Shown here: piece after piece, positions 5,846-63,751 of the stretch
How positions within the stretch are numbered: position 1 is the stretch's first letter
How the letters are laid out: every line of letters starts with the position of its first letter
Origin: a virus
Reading direction: 5' to 3' (one strand)
IMG/VR virus record: IMGVR_UViG_3300035665_003403
Span: 64,001 to 128,000 of that record
DNA: 64,000 bases
Made by a program: the position numbers and the translations under genes
The notes under the pieces: model-generated
What the model saw: the letters and a program-made list of their open reading frames with translations, nothing else
Database searches by the model: none
What the model was told of the DNA's origin: nothing

Positions 5846-6220
5846 TCACTTTTTAATAGAACCACCAATCACATTTATGAATAATTCTTCAGAAATAGGT
5901 GTAAGCAAAGTTCCACTACCATCCAATACCTCAATTGAAAATTGTCCAACATATCTACCAGCATTTTTAGTGTCTATAGCCCTAAAATTATATGTTATGA
6001 AGTATTCTTCACAACAATCACTAGTAGGTGTAACCAATTCAGTACCAGCCAATCTATTACCAATCACATGTTTTCCTGTGGTAACCTCCCACATATTGAA
6101 TTTTATTGTTGAATTTTGTAATTTATCAAAAAAATTGTTAAAATCATATCTACCATCATTTATTAGTTCCATTTTAAGAACAGGTAAGGTAGCACCCTTC
6201 ATTATATTAAATTCCATCAT
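5846..6220 (-). CDS. BppU-like Ig-fold virion/baseplate protein
   Basis: F.IMKGATLP.L.MEL...Y.F...DT..AG.Y.GQF pattern; lies in a structural operon. Confidence 0.55.
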   Translation of the reverse strand: MMEFNIMKGATLPVLKMELINDGRYDFNNFFDKLQNSTIKFNMWEVTTGKHVIGNRLAGTELVTPTSDCCEEYFITYNFRAIDTKNAGRYVGQFSIEVLDGSGTLLTPISEELFINVIGGSIKK

Positions 6221-18640: not shown

Positions 18641-19433
18641 ATTTATGAGTTGGATTAAAAATAAAATATTTGGTTTGATGTTAGCCACAGCTAATGTTGA
18701 AAAAAAAACATTTTCACAAAATGTTGCATCAGTGGAACCAGAATCAACTCAAGAGGTTGGTAAGAATCAAATAAATGTCATAAACTCTTTGATGAATTCG
18801 GAAATAACTGAAGAAGTTAAGGATTTACGATGGAGATTTTATAAGACTGTTGGTGCCCAAATAAATTATGATTTAGGTAAAGTAGATTTAGGTAAGATTA
18901 AAGTAGATTCGTTTGACCCATATCCATTGGAGTTATTAATAAACGTTAAAACTTTATCAGATAAAGTTGGTGATGAATTTCCAACAGAAAATCTTAGTAA
19001 TCAAGAATTTAATAAAGGGTTGAATGTTGATTCGAATATTAATATCACCTATAATTCCATACCTAAATTTGATTTGACTAATTTTGTTAAAAAAATAATG
19101 GTAAGAAGAATTCATGATAAGTCTAAATTGATTGAATTACATATCCCAAAAGAAGGTAGGTCGGAAAATAGAACGACAAATTTCCTTATGAGTGAACTTA
19201 AAAAGTTAACAGAAAACCCTAGGTTCAGCAACATAACAGATGTTTCTAGTATTGAAGCTTTATTGGATATAAGATTCTTAGAAATGAAAATCGTCAAGTT
19301 TGATAAAATAGTTGAATTCAATGGTAATTTCGTTATAAAATTCATAGGAAGTATAAGTAAAGATGAGTCTATTGTTGAAAAATACAAGCAGATTGAATTG
19401 GAAGAAAGATATAATAATAAAGAGGCTAGATGA
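18615..19433 (+). CDS. Hypothetical protein
   Basis: 272-aa ORF in the operon. Confidence 0.7.
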   Translation: MNIVKLLNKFMSWIKNKIFGLMLATANVEKKTFSQNVASVEPESTQEVGKNQINVINSLMNSEITEEVKDLRWRFYKTVGAQINYDLGKVDLGKIKVDSFDPYPLELLINVKTLSDKVGDEFPTENLSNQEFNKGLNVDSNINITYNSIPKFDLTNFVKKIMVRRIHDKSKLIELHIPKEGRSENRTTNFLMSELKKLTENPRFSNITDVSSIEALLDIRFLEMKIVKFDKIVEFNGNFVIKFIGSISKDESIVEKYKQIELEERYNNKEAR

Positions 19434-31962: not shown

Positions 31963-32493
31963 ATGTTTTCATTTATAAAAAACTATATTAGTAAAATAAC
32001 TAATAAGATTAAGTTATTTTTTAAACCTAAAAAAATTGATGTAAAACCTAAAACTAAAGAACAAATTTTTAACGAAAGGGTAATAAGATTAATTAACGAA
32101 GGTAGGGGATATGAATTTGATGGTAATAGAATTCATTTTGATGAAATTTTTTTAAAAGATTTGAAGATATCCGCAAACAAATATAACTCCTATATCAGGC
32201 TTAGACCCAAATTAACTAATTTCGATGTAATAATAAATCATAATTCTGAATTAAATCCAGATAATCCAACCAATGAATTATTGGTTTACAGAGATAAATT
32301 AAATTCAGATTTAATGCTTAAAGCAAATTATCGTAACAAAATGAAATACGATAAAATAATAAAAGATATGAATAATGATAGTATAAATAGTAATAGGATA
32401 ATTAATGAGATAAATAGTAATGAGATAAATATCAATAGGTACTATAATCATCCATTTCTAAATCTAAATAATGAAAATAAAAAAGAAGAATAA
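31963..32493 (+). CDS. Hypothetical Asn/Ile-rich protein
   Basis: 176-aa very AT-rich ORF, TAATG-coupled to the next gene. Confidence 0.55.
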   Translation: MFSFIKNYISKITNKIKLFFKPKKIDVKPKTKEQIFNERVIRLINEGRGYEFDGNRIHFDEIFLKDLKISANKYNSYIRLRPKLTNFDVIINHNSELNPDNPTNELLVYRDKLNSDLMLKANYRNKMKYDKIIKDMNNDSINSNRIINEINSNEININRYYNHPFLNLNNENKKEE

Positions 32494-49046: not shown

Positions 49047-50873
49047 TTATTTTAGTAAAAATTTATTTAAATTTTCTATTAGTACTTTGTTTTTATTATC
49101 ACTAACATCTTCTCTAATGCTTGAATTCATTGGCTTTTCATTAAATATATAAGCTCCTGGAGTACTAGGTGTGCTTACTATATCCCAACAAATAATTTCG
49201 AAGTCATCTTGAACAATATTTTGTCCTTTAACCTCTTTAAGACTACCAATCCCTCTAGATGATACTCCAATCTTAATTTTATTTCTTAATAAATTTGCTA
49301 TATCATCACCCTTTGTTGATACAATACCATAATTAATAAATCCTGGTGTCATCAGTATTTCCATCTTACCCATCAATGCGTTACCTTCCCACCATGTTTC
49401 AATGATGTTATGTGATACTCTATCTAACGAAATAACAGAGTCCTCTGGGTGATTACAATTGTGTGTCCAAACTATCTTATTATTTTGTTTCATTAACCAA
49501 GTTTTATTTGGAACGGAAACACAATAAACAAAATCATTGTGTGGTATTAACTCAACTTTTGTAAATCTATTATCCAAATAAATACCCTTACCTGTTCTTT
49601 CTCTGATAATATTTAATTCTTTACTATTCGAAGCTTTAATCAATCTAGGAACTCTTTTATTTACCTTAGTCAAAACTAATTCACCATCAACTTCAGTTTC
49701 AATAAATTCTCTTTTAATATCATATATTAATCTATCTTTTGGTATAATCTTATTACATGTAGCACCACTACCAATTTTCAACATTACTTCTAAAACATCA
49801 TCTTTTAATTTAGTTGATGTTGTACAATATTCTTTGATAAGAATTCCTTTACTACTTGAACTATTCTTCCCATCACCAATTAATAACCATTTTAGTAATA
49901 TGTTTAATAATCTAGGTGACCAATTTTTAGCGTACTCTGGTATAAATTTATTGTGTGAATCACCCAAAACCTTTAAATGGTTATGTAGTTTTTCATTAGT
50001 CACTGTAAATTGTCTATCACCATATAATTTAAAATTAAACGGTAATTTCTCTAACAATTCCTTAATTAAATTTTGTTGTTTACTTTTTACTTGGGTAATT
50101 GTAACTCTATTTTTATTTTTACCACCCTTACTACCATCAGTATGCCCTTCAGATATGAATATACCTAAAAATGCAGCCCAATCTTCAGTTTTTATAGTGA
50201 TATCAGTATCTGGTATAGTGAAAAACTCACTATCATCCCCATCCCAAACCCCAGAGTGTTTAATATGAGAATGTGACACTCTAGAATCCCCATTCAATAT
50301 TTTATTGTATAACTCTTCACCAGTTAAAATATATGGTTTATTGGTTCTATCCCATAAAATAACTTTATGATTTTTAGTTATAGTCATATCCAAACCACTT
50401 TCATTATAAACCCTAATTAAATCGTCATCATAATGTTTTTTTATAGTTTTACTAATTGGTTGTACTTCTAATTTATTCGACTCTAAATTAAATGTGAATA
50501 TCTCATCACCCTCAATTACTGTATCAATATCAACCCAACCATTCTTAGTGAATATTTGAGTTTCTTTTGGGACACACTCTCCTATTGCATTTCTATCCTT
50601 GATTGCTTGTTGATAAACTAAATTTTGTTGCTTAAGAATTTGTTCTGGGTATATTCTACCATTTCTATTTAATACACCATATTTTTGTAATAAGACATAA
50701 ACAATCAATGGGTCTGACATTGAACCCAAGCTGACACCTGATTCCAATTTTTTTATTTCATTAATGAAACCCTGATTTCTTGGTTCTAATGGATTAATAA
50801 ATCCAGAATCGGATTCAATCAAATAACCCCATCCTGTTTCACCCTTCTTAAGAATTTTTGCTTCTTTTATCAT
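49047..50873 (-). CDS. gp21: Prohead protease (T4 gp21-like) with an intein
   Basis: NRNGRIYP, AIGE|..|CNHP, VSHNI, GVSSRGIGS, WDIVSTPSTPGA. Confidence 0.93.
   Translation of the reverse strand: MIKEAKILKKGETGWGYLIESDSGFINPLEPRNQGFINEIKKLESGVSLGSMSDPLIVYVLLQKYGVLNRNGRIYPEQILKQQNLVYQQAIKDRNAIGECVPKETQIFTKNGWVDIDTVIEGDEIFTFNLESNKLEVQPISKTIKKHYDDDLIRVYNESGLDMTITKNHKVILWDRTNKPYILTGEELYNKILNGDSRVSHSHIKHSGVWDGDDSEFFTIPDTDITIKTEDWAAFLGIFISEGHTDGSKGGKNKNRVTITQVKSKQQNLIKELLEKLPFNFKLYGDRQFTVTNEKLHNHLKVLGDSHNKFIPEYAKNWSPRLLNILLKWLLIGDGKNSSSSKGILIKEYCTTSTKLKDDVLEVMLKIGSGATCNKIIPKDRLIYDIKREFIETEVDGELVLTKVNKRVPRLIKASNSKELNIIRERTGKGIYLDNRFTKVELIPHNDFVYCVSVPNKTWLMKQNNKIVWTHNCNHPEDSVISLDRVSHNIIETWWEGNALMGKMEILMTPGFINYGIVSTKGDDIANLLRNKIKIGVSSRGIGSLKEVKGQNIVQDDFEIICWDIVSTPSTPGAYIFNEKPMNSSIREDVSDNKNKVLIENLNKFLLK
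49458..50576 (-). mobile_element. LAGLIDADG intein (373 aa) in the prohead protease
   Basis: Begins CVPKETQIFT and ends WTHN|C; FLGIFISEG and WLLIGDG endonuclease motifs. Confidence 0.92.
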
Positions 50874-52622: not shown

Positions 52623-53405
52623 TTAATTACCCTCCAAAGTGTTTTTAAAGTTCATTATGTTAGAAACCTTATTTATAAATTCCTCATCCGATGAAAATGT
52701 GTGAGTCTCATTTAAAACTTTATGCTTAGTCTTTAATAAAACGTTCTTTAATTCCAAATCATCTTCTTTATCATACCTATCATCAACCATAGTCAATACT
52801 TCATTAATCAACGATTTTAAAACTTCTTCTTTACCTGAGTTATCAATAAGAGCCTTAACAACTTTTTTCTCATTCTCACTTAATTCTGAATATTTTTCAT
52901 TATAGTTATCAACCATAATACTAGTCATTAAACTAGTTGGAACATACCCACCATCAATAACAGATTCTTTTACAGTGTTTTTCACCATATAATCAATAAC
53001 ATAATTTTTAGCTTCTAATAACTCATCAATATTTTTACCAGATTTTTTAGTTGTAATAAGCTTATTAAGACATTCATGTAACTTTTTTTTAGAATAATCA
53101 ATTTCTTTACCCTTTAATAATCTACCAAGCTTTTCATTTTCAGATATGATATCCGATTTATTAAACTTACTAAGCAAGTTTAAATTCTCATCTAAAAACT
53201 GTAAAGCTAAATATTCTTTCGGTTCACATTTATTCTCTATGTTATCATAAATAAAAAATTGAGTTCTAAGTATCTTGTTTTCTTTTAAAACCTTTAAATA
53301 CTTTGAGAACTCAGCTTTTTTTTTGTCGTTTTTTTGTGTAATACCCTCAACTAATAATTCGTTAAAGTTTGTTTTTATATTTCCGAAATTAATCATATAA
53401 ATCAT
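52623..53405 (-). CDS. Hypothetical protein (head region)
   Basis: 260 aa; TATTTAT at 53413-53419. Confidence 0.7.
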   Translation of the reverse strand: MIYMINFGNIKTNFNELLVEGITQKNDKKKAEFSKYLKVLKENKILRTQFFIYDNIENKCEPKEYLALQFLDENLNLLSKFNKSDIISENEKLGRLLKGKEIDYSKKKLHECLNKLITTKKSGKNIDELLEAKNYVIDYMVKNTVKESVIDGGYVPTSLMTSIMVDNYNEKYSELSENEKKVVKALIDNSGKEEVLKSLINEVLTMVDDRYDKEDDLELKNVLLKTKHKVLNETHTFSSDEEFINKVSNIMNFKNTLEGN

Positions 53406-53447: not shown

Positions 53448-56400
53448 TTATAAAATATCGTTAATCTTATTAATCATATCACTCACATTTTCATTAATCA
53501 AATTATTCTTTTCACTTACATCAAAACTATCATTAAGATTTTTGCTAGTTAAATCAAACTTTTTTAGTTTATCATAATTCTCTAATACCAATCGTTCAGT
53601 TAGTTGTTCATCATTTCCACTTTCAACTGTCTCTAAATCACTTTCAGCTGTTTCTAAATCATCAATTGGTTCTTCACCACCTTCGGTACCACCTTCAGTT
53701 TCTTCACCCTCATCACCAAAATCTAAATCACCACTACCTAAGCCTCCACCACCGAAACCACCACCTAAGCCTCCACCACCACCAGAACTTCCACCATCTT
53801 CTCCACCTTCACCCCCTGCTGAACCACCTTCTAACGCTTTAGTCATATCACCATAAACTCTATCAACCACATCATATAATCCAGTGTGCTTAATAACACT
53901 TGGGGTGTTAGCTAATTCAGTCTTAGCAGCAAATTCCATTCTTTGTTCCAATAAATCTTGCTTGATATCATCATCAGACCAACCTAATATTTCTCTTTTA
54001 GCTCTTGTCATAGACATTACACCAAAACCATTTCCAGCATCAGATACACTATCCTTATACAACGTAACTTTCTTTTGTTCATTATCAACCCTAAGCATTT
54101 CTGATTGTGTTGATGGGTTATTCAATGTCAAAGTGAAATTATCCATCTCATCCTCAAATCCTAATAACACCAAATGAATCAAAGCTATCTTATTCAACTC
54201 TTGTAACATACATTGTTGAATCCTATTAATTGTTCTAGCAAATCTGATATCCTGTAACGCCAAATTCTTACCCTCACCAGTCGTTTCATCAAACCCCAAG
54301 AATGACTTGGGTACCCTAATAGCTGTAAATAAATTTGACCTTAGATACTCAATATCTGAAATTTCTCCAAGATTAGAAGCCCCAGCTAATGTATCAATTG
54401 GGTTTGGTGCATCCTCACTTCTTACGGGAATAAAGAAATCTTGGTCGTTACTTAACATGTTCATTCTCAGGTCCATTTGCCCAGTCGCTGGGTCATAAGA
54501 TGGTGTTCTTTTGAACCTATTGGCTATAGCATCAACATACGCTGGTACGTCTGCCTCATCAATATTACCAACAAATATCTTAAATACTCTTCTCTCAGGT
54601 GCCCTTGTAACACGATAGGTTAACATAGCATCTTCAGCTAAACAATTATGTACAACACACCCATTAGCTATAAAATTATGTAAATCAGATTCTACTTCCA
54701 AATCCCAAACAGATTCATAATCCAATTCAGTTACATCAATAATTTTCTCCAATCTAACATCATCAATTTTATTATTAAAATTAATATATAATTTAAACGA
54801 GTCAACCCTAGTTTCAATTTTACCAGTTTTTACATTAAGTTTTTTACTACCATCTCTTTTTGATATTATACCACAACCAATTCCAGATTGTAAACATAAA
54901 TGTTTTAAATCGGTTATTAATTTTTTATTAGCTAAACATATTGTACCATATCTATCAGAACCATCAGCATCAAACAAACCATATATTAATTGTCTTTTGT
55001 ATTCTAAACTCATATTAAACACCCATTTAGGTATTCTTTTTTTAGCAAACCCAGTTTTAAAACCAAGTTTTAAAAAAATATTTTTCAACTCTTTATTTGC
55101 AATAGTAACTGATTTACTAAATTCACTATGTTTACTAGTTCTTATACTTAAATGTGAATTAAATTTATTTTTAGCGTAATTAATATAAAATTCATTTTGC
55201 TCTTCATAAACACCTAAAGCAAACCCAATTGTATTGTTATTAATCCAACCATCACCTAACATAAATCCAATAAATCTAGACATTCCAGAATCAATATCAT
55301 ATGTCAAATCAATATTAACTAAAGATTTAGTATTATGATAGTATAAATCAAAATCACCAGAATTAAAATTAAACAATTCTATTAACTTATTTAAATATTC
55401 ATATTTTATTTTACCATTACCTTGAATAAACCTATGTATGTTTTTATAATCGGATTCATTAATATCTTTTAATTTTTTAACAATCCCAACCCTATCCAAT
55501 AATTTAGATTTAACCAACCCACTATCATTTAGTTTTAAATAATAATCATCACTATCTAATTTTATTGTTTTAACTTTATTTTCATTAGATATTGTTGGTA
55601 TCACTACTCTATCACTTCCAATTTTAATTTCGTCAATATTTTTATAAGTAAAATCAATCCCATTATAAACTAAAATTGGGTGATTATCGGTTACATTAAT
55701 AGAATTATATCTACTCCTTACTTTGTGAGTTTTTTTAATACCACTCTCCCAAACATCCTTAATTTTTGTAGTAACAATTTTTTTATTTTCGTAATCATAT
55801 GAAAATATGGAGTCACCAGGTTTAAGATTTTTTATTTTTTCATATCCATCAGTTGTCCAAATATGTGTGTTTTCGCTAACACATAATTGTCTCCATATAC
55901 GTCTTGCTTTTTCGAGCATTGACGTACCATAGGGAAGTTTTCTATCATCTGAAAGCATTCTAAAGTGGGCCATTTGCCAAGAAGTAAACTCAATATTCTG
56001 TGTTCTCCAAAGGAATTTTATATTTTCACTATTAGTAGAATTAAACACTCCATTCAACACACCTTCTCTTCTTTCCATTTCGAAATTAGGCATTTGCTTT
56101 GCACCCATAATTCCCTTGTCTTTATCGATATTAAGAGCAACAAAATTATCACCATATTTTACAACATTTCTAGTCCACATTGGCAACGATGTATGTAAAT
56201 CTAATCTATTAAAAAATAAATCCTCCAAAACTGTCTTTACTCTTTTGCTTTCAGAATATATATTCATCATTTTTCCTTGATGATTTAGTGTAACACATTC
56301 TTCAGCCATGATATCCATAGCTGCACCAATAATTGGAAAGTTCTCCATAGCTTCGAAATCACTATAGGCACCAATTCTTGTTGTTTCGTAAGAAATAGAT

Positions 56401-56621
56401 TGTTGGAATAAACCATTATCTACTTTCTTCCAAAGATTATTTAGGTATTTGTTTTGTTGATTGGCTAATAAAGCGGTATCATATTCAGCTTTATTATCAG
56501 TCTTTAATAATTGACCTTTAGATAAATTAAATGTTTGTTGTTTAGGTTCATAAGCTCTAGGCCCATCAGCAGTAAAGACACGACCAAGCTTTTGAAAAAC
56601 TGTTAATTTTTTATTTTCCAT
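53448..56621 (-). CDS. gp20: Portal protein (T4 gp20-like) with an intein
   Basis: PYGTSMLEKARRIWRQL|..|CLAEDAML.YR..RAPERRVF, DFFIPVR, IDTLAG, LALQDIRFARTI. Confidence 0.95.
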   Translation of the reverse strand: MENKKLTVFQKLGRVFTADGPRAYEPKQQTFNLSKGQLLKTDNKAEYDTALLANQQNKYLNNLWKKVDNGLFQQSISYETTRIGAYSDFEAMENFPIIGAAMDIMAEECVTLNHQGKMMNIYSESKRVKTVLEDLFFNRLDLHTSLPMWTRNVVKYGDNFVALNIDKDKGIMGAKQMPNFEMERREGVLNGVFNSTNSENIKFLWRTQNIEFTSWQMAHFRMLSDDRKLPYGTSMLEKARRIWRQLCVSENTHIWTTDGYEKIKNLKPGDSIFSYDYENKKIVTTKIKDVWESGIKKTHKVRSRYNSINVTDNHPILVYNGIDFTYKNIDEIKIGSDRVVIPTISNENKVKTIKLDSDDYYLKLNDSGLVKSKLLDRVGIVKKLKDINESDYKNIHRFIQGNGKIKYEYLNKLIELFNFNSGDFDLYYHNTKSLVNIDLTYDIDSGMSRFIGFMLGDGWINNNTIGFALGVYEEQNEFYINYAKNKFNSHLSIRTSKHSEFSKSVTIANKELKNIFLKLGFKTGFAKKRIPKWVFNMSLEYKRQLIYGLFDADGSDRYGTICLANKKLITDLKHLCLQSGIGCGIISKRDGSKKLNVKTGKIETRVDSFKLYINFNNKIDDVRLEKIIDVTELDYESVWDLEVESDLHNFIANGCVVHNCLAEDAMLTYRVTRAPERRVFKIFVGNIDEADVPAYVDAIANRFKRTPSYDPATGQMDLRMNMLSNDQDFFIPVRSEDAPNPIDTLAGASNLGEISDIEYLRSNLFTAIRVPKSFLGFDETTGEGKNLALQDIRFARTINRIQQCMLQELNKIALIHLVLLGFEDEMDNFTLTLNNPSTQSEMLRVDNEQKKVTLYKDSVSDAGNGFGVMSMTRAKREILGWSDDDIKQDLLEQRMEFAAKTELANTPSVIKHTGLYDVVDRVYGDMTKALEGGSAGGEGGEDGGSSGGGGGLGGGFGGGGLGSGDLDFGDEGEETEGGTEGGEEPIDDLETAESDLETVESGNDEQLTERLVLENYDKLKKFDLTSKNLNDSFDVSEKNNLINENVSDMINKINDIL
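54645..55883 (-). mobile_element. LAGLIDADG intein (413 aa) in the portal
   Basis: Begins CVSENTHIWT, has TDNHP, and ends HNFIANGCVVHN|C; IGFMLGDG and IYGLFDADG motifs. Confidence 0.93.
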
Positions 56622-59190: not shown

Positions 59191-60387
59191 TTATAAACTA
59201 TTCATCAAATCATCCCAATCATATCCTTCATCATCAGATTTATTACTATCAAAACCTAAATCTTCAGATAAATCATCACCCTCACTCATATCTTTTTTTA
59301 TTTCTTCAATAATTTGGTTGATTATTTTTTCACCAGCTTTTGTGTTTGCTAAAATTTCTTTCATTTTATAGTTGAAATCATCCACTGGTAAGCTAACCAA
59401 ATCAGAAAATATATGGTGCTTCAAATGAAAATCATCCGCTGGAATCATTTCTGTGATGCAACCCCATAATGCTGGTCCCAATCTCATATCCCAAATTTCA
59501 GCTTTAACAAAATCAGCCTTGTTTATAACATAATTTGCAATTGATTTTTTCTTTGGTAACCCATTAGCACCAATGATTTCCATAACCCCTTTTACCATTT
59601 CATGAATCAATACAGGAAAACTTGTTGCTTCAACACGAACAACGTTAGGTGCTGTTTCTTCTTCTGTAAATTCAACCTCAACCACTCCACCAGTCATAGC
59701 TTCATCTAAATTATTCATAATAAAATAAACGTAATCAGCGGTAGACATCAATTTTGCGTATAACCCTGGTAATCTAGGATTTAAAGATGTCAACTCATCA
59801 TCAACCATATGAAACATATGGTTACATTTTTTTGCTGAACCTTGAATCAATGCGTTAACAAAACGTCTTTTGTAGACTTCTTTGTTTGCAACCACCATTT
59901 CGTCATGATTTTTGAATTTCATTCCTTCAACTTCGGTTGGTTCCATATTCATATCCATACCACTTAAGCTAATCTTATCAATCAACTTAACATCAAATTT
60001 AATAATTGATTTATCAATATCAAATTCTTCATTAATCATATCAATGGCTAACTTAACCAATTCTTTATGATGTGGTTTCTCCAATTCGATTGTTTCAATC
60101 AATAATGGTATTACCATCTTAACAACATTCGTTGCATCAACATTTTCAATATCAAATGCTCTTTTGTATCGTTTAACAACATCAATAAATCTTTCGTTTA
60201 CAATCTTTTCATCGAAATTGATTTCATTTGATTCTGGAAACGCTGGGTGATTTCCCAATGAATGCTTTCGCTCCCTTAATTGTTTTTGAATTTCTGGGTG
60301 CATTCTTTCACGCATATTATCTGGGTATTTATAACCCTCAGTTAGATTTTTTTTTAAGGCCATCTTAGCCATAGATTTGTAATCCAT
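59191..60387 (-). CDS. Hypothetical protein (head region)
   Basis: 398 aa; coupled operon. Confidence 0.75.
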   Translation of the reverse strand: MDYKSMAKMALKKNLTEGYKYPDNMRERMHPEIQKQLRERKHSLGNHPAFPESNEINFDEKIVNERFIDVVKRYKRAFDIENVDATNVVKMVIPLLIETIELEKPHHKELVKLAIDMINEEFDIDKSIIKFDVKLIDKISLSGMDMNMEPTEVEGMKFKNHDEMVVANKEVYKRRFVNALIQGSAKKCNHMFHMVDDELTSLNPRLPGLYAKLMSTADYVYFIMNNLDEAMTGGVVEVEFTEEETAPNVVRVEATSFPVLIHEMVKGVMEIIGANGLPKKKSIANYVINKADFVKAEIWDMRLGPALWGCITEMIPADDFHLKHHIFSDLVSLPVDDFNYKMKEILANTKAGEKIINQIIEEIKKDMSEGDDLSEDLGFDSNKSDDEGYDWDDLMNSL

Positions 60388-61334: not shown

Positions 61335-61758
61335 CGTACTTTAATTCTTTATGTTTTTCCTTATAATCATAAATATAGTTAAGCTTGAACTCTCTTGAAT
61401 ATAATTTAGCTTCAACACTTTCTAATGTCTCACCAAATGCAAATATAACCCTATTTTCAGGGTACTCAATATATTCATCTAAGTTCTCCCATGCTAATGA
61501 AATAACTCCATCAACAGCATCCCACACAGAAAAATTCGTGCTTTCTTGGATTACATCCAATACTAAATCACCTTCAAATTTACCAACTTTTTTTATGAAT
61601 CTATTTTTAGGTGGTAACGGTCTTCCAGCGGCTGGATATGAATCCCAATCTGGACCATCAATATCTTTTATAGTATCAGAAAATATAAACTCATAGATGT
61701 TCTTATTATTAAAATCAGAACCCAATGAATTAACATATATTAGAAATAATTTGTCCAT
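61321..61758 (-). CDS. Hypothetical protein
   Basis: 145 aa; coupled operon. Confidence 0.7.
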   Translation of the reverse strand: MDKLFLIYVNSLGSDFNNKNIYEFIFSDTIKDIDGPDWDSYPAAGRPLPPKNRFIKKVGKFEGDLVLDVIQESTNFSVWDAVDGVISLAWENLDEYIEYPENRVIFAFGETLESVEAKLYSREFKLNYIYDYKEKHKELKYDANR

Positions 61759-63158
61759 TAAGCAATGTACATATTTAACTCATACTTTGTAGGCATACCA
61801 TAAACTTGAATATTCAATTTTTGTTTAACTACTTTACCATTTTTGTACAAATCTAAAGAGTATTTGTTTGTAACACCTTCATTAGGTTTAGCTGGGCCTG
61901 TGGAAATTTGTCTAAACCAATCCCCCTCATCAATAGTGTAACCTTTAGATGTTGCATATTTTTCAGCTTCATGAACCGCACTAGTGAAACTATCATGGTA
62001 AATCTCATATGATGACTCTTTAGGTGTTTCAGAAACAGCTTTAGGTTTTGGCGCAACAGATGGGTTAACCTTAAAAGGACGTTCTCTCCTTTTAATTTTA
62101 CCTGGAACTTTGGTTCCTGGGTCAGTTTTAGGCTTTGTTGTTGGTATTACCTCAGTTTCAGTATTATCTGTACTAAATGTTTCTTTTAATATTTGCATAA
62201 TATGGTTTTTATCAAAGATACTATTTTTTTCTTTAATTTCAAAATCCTCATTTAAATTAACTGATTCCACATTCCCATGTTCATCTGAATAACCACCTTC
62301 AGTATCACCATCATACCCAAATTGACCCTCCAAGAAATGATACACTTCTTCCATATCATCAGCAGATGTCGATATGTGGTCCACAGCCCAAGCGTGTCCG
62401 TTAGCTATCAATGAATCAATTTTTTCTTTATTCATTGATAATAATTCATTAGTAACGTGATTTATGTTTTTTATATTTTGCCAAAACATATAATTATTGG
62501 ATTCACGATTATCATCCTCATTAATTGGAACACAATTAGGTACTTCTTTCCCATTCTTTTCTTTCATTCCCAATTGTTTATACCCACTCCAACAAGGATT
62601 TTGTTCATCCAAGATATCATTTGAACCAGGTTGAAACATATTATTACGTTTAGGTTCACCAAAAATACTATTTTCATTTACAGCATCATCACCAAAATCT
62701 AACCCATCACCATCTGGTTCTGACCCATCCTTTGAATTAGATTCGTCACCCTCTGGTTCTGATTCATCTTTAGAGCCAGATTTTTTAACTTTTTTTATGA
62801 TATCATTTTGGTCTTCCTCATCCATTTCGGATGTATGTGTTGCCGATAAAACTGAGTTTATAGCAAATTTTTCCAATTCAAGATTTGGTGAACCTTGGTC
62901 TTGTGTATATTGACGTATTGATTGACCTAATTTCCCAGATAATTGTTGAATGTATTTATCTGGCTCTGATGCTTCATCAGCTTCAACACCAGCGTCAAAT
63001 GGTTCTTTTTCAAATGAAAAATCATCACCCGAATTATCAGGTGATGAGGTTGTGGTATTTGTAGGTTGTGGTGCAGCAGCTGGTTGAGCTGGTGCTGGAT
63101 TAGGGTTTGGAACCTTAAGAGTGAATTTTTCCTCTTTGATTACTTCACCGAATAGACT
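61758..63158 (-). CDS. -1-frame extension of the 63140-63751 gene (modular acidic head-associated protein)
   Basis: The frame is open from 63182 with no ATG before the track TTG at 62876. It reads SLFGEVIKEEKFTLKVPNPNPAPAQ...PFDAGVEADE and contains PCWSGYKQLGMKEKNGKEVPNCVP. Confidence 0.75.
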   Translation of the reverse strand, partial: SLFGEVIKEEKFTLKVPNPNPAPAQPAAAPQPTNTTTSSPDNSGDDFSFEKEPFDAGVEADEASEPDKYIQQLSGKLGQSIRQYTQDQGSPNLELEKFAINSVLSATHTSEMDEEDQNDIIKKVKKSGSKDESEPEGDESNSKDGSEPDGDGLDFGDDAVNENSIFGEPKRNNMFQPGSNDILDEQNPCWSGYKQLGMKEKNGKEVPNCVPINEDDNRESNNYMFWQNIKNINHVTNELLSMNKEKIDSLIANGHAWAVDHISTSADDMEEVYHFLEGQFGYDGDTEGGYSDEHGNVESVNLNEDFEIKEKNSIFDKNHIMQILKETFSTDNTETEVIPTTKPKTDPGTKVPGKIKRRERPFKVNPSVAPKPKAVSETPKESSYEIYHDSFTSAVHEAEKYATSKGYTIDEGDWFRQISTGPAKPNEGVTNKYSLDLYKNGKVVKQKLNIQVYGMPTKYELNMYIA

Positions 63159-63751
63159 TTTTTTTTTACTTTTGGAGTCAAATCATCTATAATTGTATCG
63201 ATGTTACCCATTACTTTTGCTATTGATAAGCCTTTGTGTTCTTTGATAGTTACGGGTTCTTTTCCGTATTCTTTATCTCTCATTTCTTCAATCATAGCTT
63301 CATTTTCAGTCAACTCGATATCAGCTTCTTCCATTTCAATTTCCGATACTATATTTTCAATAATTTCATCATCGTTTTCCAAGATGTTCGTTGATACATT
63401 TGTATCCAATGCTTCATTCAATGAAATAAATTTGAAATTTAATTCTTTGACAGCCTTAGCGTATGAAGGATAAGCTTGGTCTTTTTTGTTTTGTAGACCA
63501 CCAATGTATTGGAAATCCTCAACAACCAAATTTTTCTTTTTGTTTGCTGTCTTGATAAAATACTCGTGGTTTTCTCTAACGATACCATAAATTTTACCAT
63601 CTGGTCCAATTTTTTGTAGTTCTAAGACGTAACGACTATTGTTAGTGTTTTCTGGAACTACATTCATTAATTCCATTATTCTATTTTTAACTTCATTACC
63701 TTTAAGTGTTAAAGGGTTTACATTTAATTTGTTTTTCATAATTTTAATCAT
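63140..63751 (-). CDS. Hypothetical protein; 0-frame product ends just after the A10 slippery site
   Basis: 203 aa ending KVKKKVYSVK*. Confidence 0.8.
   Translation of the reverse strand: MIKIMKNKLNVNPLTLKGNEVKNRIMELMNVVPENTNNSRYVLELQKIGPDGKIYGIVRENHEYFIKTANKKKNLVVEDFQYIGGLQNKKDQAYPSYAKAVKELNFKFISLNEALDTNVSTNILENDDEIIENIVSEIEMEEADIELTENEAMIEEMRDKEYGKEPVTIKEHKGLSIAKVMGNIDTIIDDLTPKVKKKVYSVK
63158..63167 (-). promoter_or_regulatory. A10 slippery site (candidate -1 frameshift or transcriptional slippage)
   Basis: GTA AAA AAA AAA GTC lies within the 43-nt overlap of the two open frames. Confidence 0.65.

Follow-up and report, generated by a model that had tools for sequence, protein, structure and literature searches.

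The tail assembly chaperone G/GT of phage lambda is made together with a small, set proportion of a fusion product, and the 10A/10B capsid gene of phages T7 and T3 gives mostly a short form and less of a long one, which is reached by a -1 shift close to where the open reading frame (ORF) ends. In T7 the extension measures ~50 residues and is reached by ribosomal slippage on a site that is not a homopolymer. Transcriptional frameshifting has been described in tssM1 of Citrobacter rodentium, and also in tssM3 of Yersinia pseudotuberculosis (Gueguen et al. 2014, PMC4256274). Realignment during transcription, on stretches of nine A or T residues, is known from dnaX of Thermus thermophilus (tau/gamma), from spa13 and mxiE of Shigella and from insertion sequence (IS) elements (PMC5009743). 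Here, we analyse a run of ten A residues (A10) in 64,000 nucleotides (nt) of viral DNA, positions 64,001 to 128,000 of the IMG/VR record IMGVR_UViG_3300035665_003403. This whole stretch is called the window, and coordinates refer to it unless stated otherwise. The source is an uncultured T4-like lake phage. On the minus strand, the run lies where an ORF of 203 codons (ORF1) ends and a long frame in -1 register (ORF2) opens. From the pattern of conservation set out below, it is well supported that this one gene would give a short and a long product, outside the context of a tail chaperone.

Comparison with described recoding systems

With tssM1 the locus shares an A-run (11 residues in tssM1) shortly before a premature stop, the restoration of the downstream frame by extra A's, and the pairing of a short with a long form. 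The shift in tssM1 reaches ~20-25%, both forms were shown by experiment to be needed, and such slippage is rare among tssM genes (PMC4256274). It operates without flanking stimulatory signals and is abolished by AAA-to-AAG changes (PMC4256274). Unlike tssM1, which belongs to bacterial secretion, the gene described here is a phage late gene known from sequence alone, and its site is kept throughout a clade, in 74/74 junctions.

The cases of Thermus dnaX, spa13, mxiE and the IS elements resemble the phage locus in that a homopolymer of at least nine residues is the sole signal and that there are nearby stops in the remaining frames. In these systems the trans-frame product is made at a fixed proportion (PMC5009743). 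In Thermus dnaX the long product is read in the zero frame and slippage makes the short one, whereas the phage gene has the reverse arrangement; the two families are unrelated. The dnaX gene of E. coli also has Lys codons at its shift site, a -1 shift, and two products with a common N-terminus. Its shift depends on a Shine-Dalgarno-like element ahead of the site and on a hairpin located 6 nt past it (PMC5009743). At the phage site, in contrast, neither element was found, and the run is longer than a heptamer and uninterrupted.

Like lambda G/GT, the locus would be a phage late gene in which -1 recoding is conserved and gives a fusion as the minor product. In contrast to G/GT, no tape-measure gene adjoins it. 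The neighbours are ORFs of unassigned function, the large terminase gene, which lies with the portal gene four genes downstream, and the T4-type portal gene itself. Neither ORF1 nor ORF2 matches a chaperone family in Pfam or PHROGs. With 203 and 664 residues, the products much exceed those of G/GT in size, and a long homopolymer serves as the shift site. What the locus has in common with T7/T3 10A/10B is a -1 shift late in the ORF, with a short and a long form as the outcome. Here, a relation of the phage gene to the head is a candidate only, and the extension has 465 residues with conserved domains of its own.

The mechanism is of a known kind, and in the literature we found neither a description of the ORF1/ORF2 family nor any DNA phage with a slippage site kept across a clade. 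The two phage papers found that mention slippage only suggest it, for single genomes (PMC2853527, PMC6095929). To these the locus adds a DNA phage in which the site is conserved across a whole clade.

The A10 junction

ORF1 (63140..63751, minus strand) encodes the 203-residue zero-frame product, which consists of a conserved N-terminal domain, an acidic variable middle and a conserved C-terminal helix ending in Lys-Lys-Lys. Its 3' end reads GTA AAA AAA AAA GTC TAT TCG GTG AAG TAA. The A10 run occupies 63158..63167 on the minus strand (T10 on the plus strand) and has the zero-frame phase GTA AAA AAA AAA G. A TGA in the -1 frame (63183..63185, minus strand), 15 nt upstream of the run, sets the 5' limit within which a shift can take place, and the zero-frame TAA (63140..63142, minus strand), five codons past the run, sets the 3' limit. 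ORF2 extends in the -1 frame from the run to its stop (61758..63167, minus strand) and comprises 469 codons including the run; its fusion with ORF1 would have ~664 residues. In total, the -1 frame is open for 474 codons between the TGA at 63185-63183 and the stop at 61760-61758, and 465 of these codons lie past A10.

ORF2 has no start codon near its beginning. The first ATG, GTG or TTG in the -1 frame of the window is a TTG at 62876, 93 codons past the run, and the first ATG follows 110 codons past it. The codons ahead of this TTG are protein-like and include a Pro/Ala linker, PFDAGVEADE and IQQLSGKLGQ. The sequence-only reading had given this sequence for the end of ORF1 with its A-run and this position for the TGA, and had noted both the missing ATG and the protein-like codons ahead of a start; all of this was confirmed.

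A run of ten A's is by itself not rare in this genome. The contig of 148.8 kb has a GC content of 29% and contains 20 A or T runs of nine or more. The run at 63158-63167 is the only one of the 20 that stands between the end of a long ORF and the opening of a long frame: the zero frame is open for 205 codons upstream and 5 downstream of it, the -1 frame for 5 upstream and 465 downstream. The remaining runs are intergenic or lie in frame within ORFs. It is the conservation in relatives, and not the A10 run as such, that takes the arrangement beyond chance.

Conservation of the junction

A profile scan of IMG/VR gave at least 176 relatives. From three IMG/VR scans we assembled 74 distinct junctions, the window included, with ORF1 39-65% identical to that of the window. 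Wherever a locus has both genes, ORF1 is followed by its ORF2 homologue in -1 register. Over the 74 junctions, this frame runs open for 277-933 codons, the +1 frame is shut within 2-33 codons, and the zero-frame stop comes 0-8 codons past the run. The stops that bound the two frames leave an overlap of 13-64 nt, and in 74/74 junctions the A-run lies inside it. Most runs are A10 (66), with five A9, two A11 and one A12; the minimum is nine. We looked for homologues that form a single uninterrupted ORF and met none, since the -1 break and a run of 9-12 A's are kept in every junction.

A pattern scan that allowed 9-13 A's in one subfamily returned A10 in 12/12 IMG/VR contigs and in 7/7 homologous metagenome contigs. 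An eighth metagenome hit, a TARA sequence with A9 (L190), was discarded as an unrelated chance match in non-coding DNA. The sequence-only reading had named an A11 in the reads as what would expose a homopolymer error, and these independent assemblies answer that concern.

The break is also seen in protein databases. Among 121 database proteins (120 longer relatives and the query), 119 stop at Lys-Lys-Lys or no more than 12 residues past it. The two others, P0026 (711 residues) and P0051 (674 residues), come from Logan assemblies and pass through the junction just as predicted for the -1 fusion. P0051 is 81% identical across the junction to the conceptual fusion of L031, a relative whose DNA has A10. 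These two proteins could derive from A11 genomes, from errors or from RNA-derived contigs.

Gene callers split ORF1 and ORF2 in every relative. Because 119 of the 121 database proteins stop at Lys-Lys-Lys, the long product of a widespread freshwater clade of T4-like phages is absent from protein catalogues.

Constraint on the unbroken run

The first A of the run is at codon position 3 in 64 junctions, at position 1 in seven and at position 2 in three, and the residue ahead of it varies (V, L, S, P, I or G). Where the length or phase differs, as in A9, A11 and A12 variants, the flanks compensate so that ORF2 remains in the -1 frame. Since both the phase and the preceding residue vary while the run stays at nine or more, the constraint is on the nucleotides, as an unbroken run of at least nine, rather than on the protein or the codon phase.

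Codon usage in the same genes leads to a similar picture. In ORFs of the ORF1/ORF2 family, Lys is encoded by AAA in 79-82% of cases (~80%) and by AAG in ~20%. Away from the junction, just 3/62 Lys-Lys-Lys tripeptides are all-AAA, where about half would be expected; most are AAA AAG AAA or AAG AAA AAA. All 74 junctions, by comparison, keep the run unbroken. This contrast means that long A-runs are avoided elsewhere in these genes and retained at the junction. The relatives provide a clean natural series for what polymerase slippage needs in vivo, with runs of 9-12, three phases and avoidance of A-runs elsewhere in the genes.

Possible slippage by the polymerase or by the ribosome

We propose that a single gene would give two proteins by programmed recoding at the conserved A-run. 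Most messages or ribosomes would be read as written and stop five codons past the run, giving the 203-residue protein. A minority would enter the -1 frame within the run, which would lead to the fusion of ~664 residues: ORF1 through Lys-Lys-Lys, and then Ser-Leu-Phe-Gly-Glu onward. Both the ratio of the two products and the machine that slips are matters that we infer from the DNA.

With a probability of roughly 60%, we favour slippage of RNA polymerase over -1 ribosomal frameshifting on a heptamer. Here, the RNA:DNA hybrid of 9-10 base pairs (bp), consisting entirely of A:T pairs, would realign and add an extra A to some transcripts, in which ORF2 would be in frame and would be translated in the ordinary way. 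One added A would give the -1 frame, while one lost or two added A's would give the +1 frame and a quick stop. We favour polymerase slippage because the run is never shorter than nine, because its phase is free, and because no structure is found adjacent to it. The minimum run among the relatives equals the length of nine at which bacterial RNA polymerase slips (PMC5009743).

Programmed -1 ribosomal frameshifting, which we consider rather unlikely, would have a tRNA-Lys in both the P and the A site slip on an in-phase A AAA AAA or A AAA AAG while the message is transcribed faithfully. At least one such heptamer is in phase in 74/74 junctions, with the same phase in 64/74. The zero-frame stop shortly past the run recalls many frameshift cassettes, and A AAA AAG, a classic site for an efficient shift, is that of E. 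coli dnaX (PMC5009743). However, a heptamer with AAG would suffice for the ribosome, yet none of the 74 runs is shorter than nine or interrupted by AAG, although AAG makes up a fifth of the Lys codons and is nearly always present in the other Lys-Lys-Lys tripeptides of the same genes. This is a second ground on which we prefer the polymerase.

The RNA around the run also bears on the choice. If the ribosome shifted, a stimulatory structure would commonly, though not always, be expected 5-9 nt downstream, and in general there is none: for the proximal segment (+4 to +35, 32 nt) of the 74 junctions, the mean minimum free energy (MFE) is -1.5 kcal/mol with z -0.41. For the window's own 32 nt past the run, the MFE is -1.7 kcal/mol and z = -0.09. 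The GTGAA/TTCAC and AAGAG/CTCTT pairings to which the sequence-only reading pointed are present past the site; as this z shows, their stimulatory value is no better than chance. Upstream, no hairpin was found within 40 nt of the run (z -0.31). On the other side, a few subfamilies do have a hairpin directly past the run, and z for the proximal segment falls below -2 in 11/74 junctions.

Further away, the 70 nt past the run fold more stably than shuffled sequences (mean z -2.1, below -2 in 40/74), and a control segment 300 nt further on gives z -0.39. The distal hairpins responsible begin in the K-L codons of the KYKLK motif described below and close in the Pro-Ala codons. They lie 25-170 nt from the run at no fixed distance. 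Many relatives (L004, L007, L039, L041, L091 and L161 among others) have perfect stems of 8-9 bp, the stems differ among subfamilies, and the window's copy (63073-63095, minus strand) is weak. RNAalifold detected no common structure in 64 aligned sequences. Their variable distance and the missing common fold weigh against a ribosomal shift; we dropped a conserved downstream hairpin as stimulator and do not regard these stems as belonging to the slip signal. They may be a by-product of self-complementary codons rich in Ala, Pro and Gly.

In the subfamily of L020, L022 and L028, a 7-bp hairpin (GTCTAAA ... TTTAGAC) spans the zero-frame stop at +1 to +20 of the junction. It might be a local stimulator in that subfamily only.

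Several points weigh against polymerase slippage as we present it. A ribosomal shift is always possible, since no run of nine or more lacks an in-phase heptamer (A AAA AAA or A AAA AAG). Phase 3 dominates (64/74), which shared ancestry or a constraint from the ribosome may explain. The relatives are one clade, which means that the 74 junctions are not 74 independent origins, and the read-through of P0026 and P0051 may be due to assembly errors. The case also depends on how the RNA polymerase and tRNA-Lys of the host behave. Polymerase and ribosome may also both slip. As for the label of a -1 frameshift under which the sequence-only reading had filed the site, the -1 break stands, two products are well supported, the ribosomal route is disfavoured, and the pattern of constraint fits the other option it had mentioned, transcriptional slippage.

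Phase variation at the level of DNA is highly improbable. In this scenario, slipped-strand mispairing during phage replication would produce A10 and A11 genomes, of which only the A11 genomes would make the fusion. Homopolymers of this length do vary in replication, and P0026 and P0051, from other assemblies, read through as if they had A11. However, the consensus is out of frame in 74/74 junctions, in 119 of the 121 database proteins and in 19/19 pattern hits; a switch should leave more genomes with an in-frame consensus, and the run length is stable across deep divergence.

We find it hardly credible that ORF1 and ORF2 are two separate genes. In that case, ribosomes would reinitiate on ORF2 once past the ORF1 stop or would use a start codon of a non-canonical type, and the A-run would be nothing but a Lys-rich C-terminus. 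The short overlap (13-64 nt) is of a kind common in coupled genes. However, no ATG, GTG or TTG occurs between the upstream stop of the -1 frame and the K-[YF]-K-L-K motif in 60/74 junctions, and relatives have CTA, CTG or TTA in place of the TTG within the KYKLK motif. Conservation of the protein read in the -1 frame begins at the run itself, with similarity extending to within a few residues of it, and the uninterrupted run would be left unexplained. An independent start of ORF2 was ruled out on account of the scarce start codons before KYKLK and of the conservation up to the run.

That the true gene is a single A11 ORF, broken by an error of sequencing or assembly, has practically no chance of being right: A10 for A11 is a classic homopolymer miscall, but it is excluded by the recurrence of the same break in 74 junctions, which come from numerous independent samples and assemblies and are 39-65% identical in protein; the A9, A11, A12 and other-phase variants always keep the -1 relation.

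Protein features and a candidate link to the phage head

ORF1 has a strongly conserved N-terminal domain of ~130 residues, and an alignment of 32 ORF1 relatives (alignment A1) has 45 invariant columns. Its middle is hypervariable, acidic and built from mosaic modules, with EF-hand/dockerin-like calcium loops in some relatives. The modules swapped among the relatives of alignment A1 include a Cys-containing N-P-W-A-I-C-T, P-D-L-T-G-D-G-K-V-T and the EF-hand/dockerin-like loops. The ORF1 of the window, at 203 residues, is the shortest form and has none of the swapped modules.

ORF2 comprises a Pro/Ala linker, a conserved helical region, a beta-hairpin that contains Cys, a helical domain and, C-terminally, a well-modelled alpha/beta domain (alignment A2). 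The Cys-containing beta-hairpin is common to many phage proteins of unassigned function. Some relatives have two or three repeats of the helical domain (residues 227-312 of the query). Most relatives also have a basic, Cys/His-containing module of ~90 residues (A2 columns ~1237-1325), which is absent from the ORF2 of the window. AlphaFold2 (AF2) models have a mean predicted local distance difference test (pLDDT) score of 55 for ORF1 and 58 for ORF2, with a confident C-terminal domain of ORF2 at residues 388-469.

Searches with the window proteins and all alignment members against Pfam and PHROGs returned only PHROGs of unknown function and sporadic EF-hand/dockerin motifs; the window's ORF1 had no match in either. 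Profile searches of the PDB gave nothing below E = 0.5, the ESM Atlas returned only viral hypothetical proteins at 0.8 or below, and Foldseek found nothing at E <= 0.001 in the PDB and BFVD.

Just past the junction, the -1 frame encodes a candidate prohead-protease site (63114..63140, minus strand), which reads I-K-E, then E, then K-F-T-L-K. The motif of the family is [LIV]-x-E, one or two residues, and K-[YF]-K-L-K. In 73/73 relatives, [LIV]xE ends one or two residues ahead of KYKLK, compared with 12% of control segments. The T4 gp21 protease family cuts after (L/I)-x-E in head maturation, and the window has a gene with a gp21-type prohead protease domain (Peptidase_S77, PF03420; 49140..49589, minus strand; 54.8 bits, E 6.4e-16, over the curated cut-off). 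A gp21-like protease would cut the fusion at [LIV]xE just past the junction and thereby release the ORF2 part.

The [LIV]xE motif, the gp21-like protease gene and the proximity of the terminase and portal genes are circumstantial evidence for a head-associated, protease-processed protein. The sequence-only reading had gone further and suggested a protein of the prohead core. Position, motif and protease lend this circumstantial support, but homology does not: Pfam, PHROGs, PDB profiles, the ESM Atlas and Foldseek gave no similarity to the T4 core proteins gp22, gp67, gp68, the internal proteins (IPs) and Alt. If the protease site is read correctly, recoding would be linked to the control of head-protein copy number.

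A more specific and tentative idea, doubtful as it stands, is that the slip doses a capsid cargo. Here, ORF1 would be an abundant, acidic carrier of a scaffold-like or capsid-targeting kind, to which a rare slip would fuse ORF2. A fixed few copies of the fusion would enter each prohead, where the protease would free ORF2 at [LIV]xE. In this case, the copy number of an internal protein would be set by the error rate of the polymerase, of which we met no earlier description in the literature.

The Peptidase_S77 domain sits in an open frame of 620 codons. A second, weak match lies at ~50574-50741 (minus strand), ~1 kb upstream, which may point to a duplication of the prohead protease or to its fusion with a further domain.

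Genomic neighbourhood

On the minus strand, the genes upstream of the junction are, in order, thymidylate synthase, a sugar-isomerase-like gene, a PKD/CHU_C protein of 607 residues and an ORF of 87 residues, followed by ORF1, A10 and ORF2. Downstream of ORF2 come four ORFs of unassigned function (145, 315, 398 and 156 residues), the large terminase and the T4-type portal with an intein. The portal gene (53448-56621, minus strand) encodes 1057 residues, with an intein splicing domain at residues 258-659.

ORF1 had no match among 50,697 genomes of cultured phages, and ORF2 matched cultured phages only via short shared modules. The Melnitz neighbourhood consists entirely of hypothetical genes. 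The best cultured match of the large terminase is a Flavobacterium phage, at 31% identity. The 607-residue protein two genes upstream (L090:1080-2903, minus strand, equal to window 64079-65902) combines PKD-like repeats with a CHU_C type IX secretion sorting domain, and this hints at a host from the Bacteroidota.

Elsewhere in the genome, A9 runs lie in frame at window positions 60347-60355, 53316-53324 and 18700-18708 and at genome positions 6004-6012 and 32174-32182. These runs are 15-63 codons into ORFs of 264 to 1877 codons, whose frame is unbroken. Slippage at such runs could reduce the yield of the full-length products.

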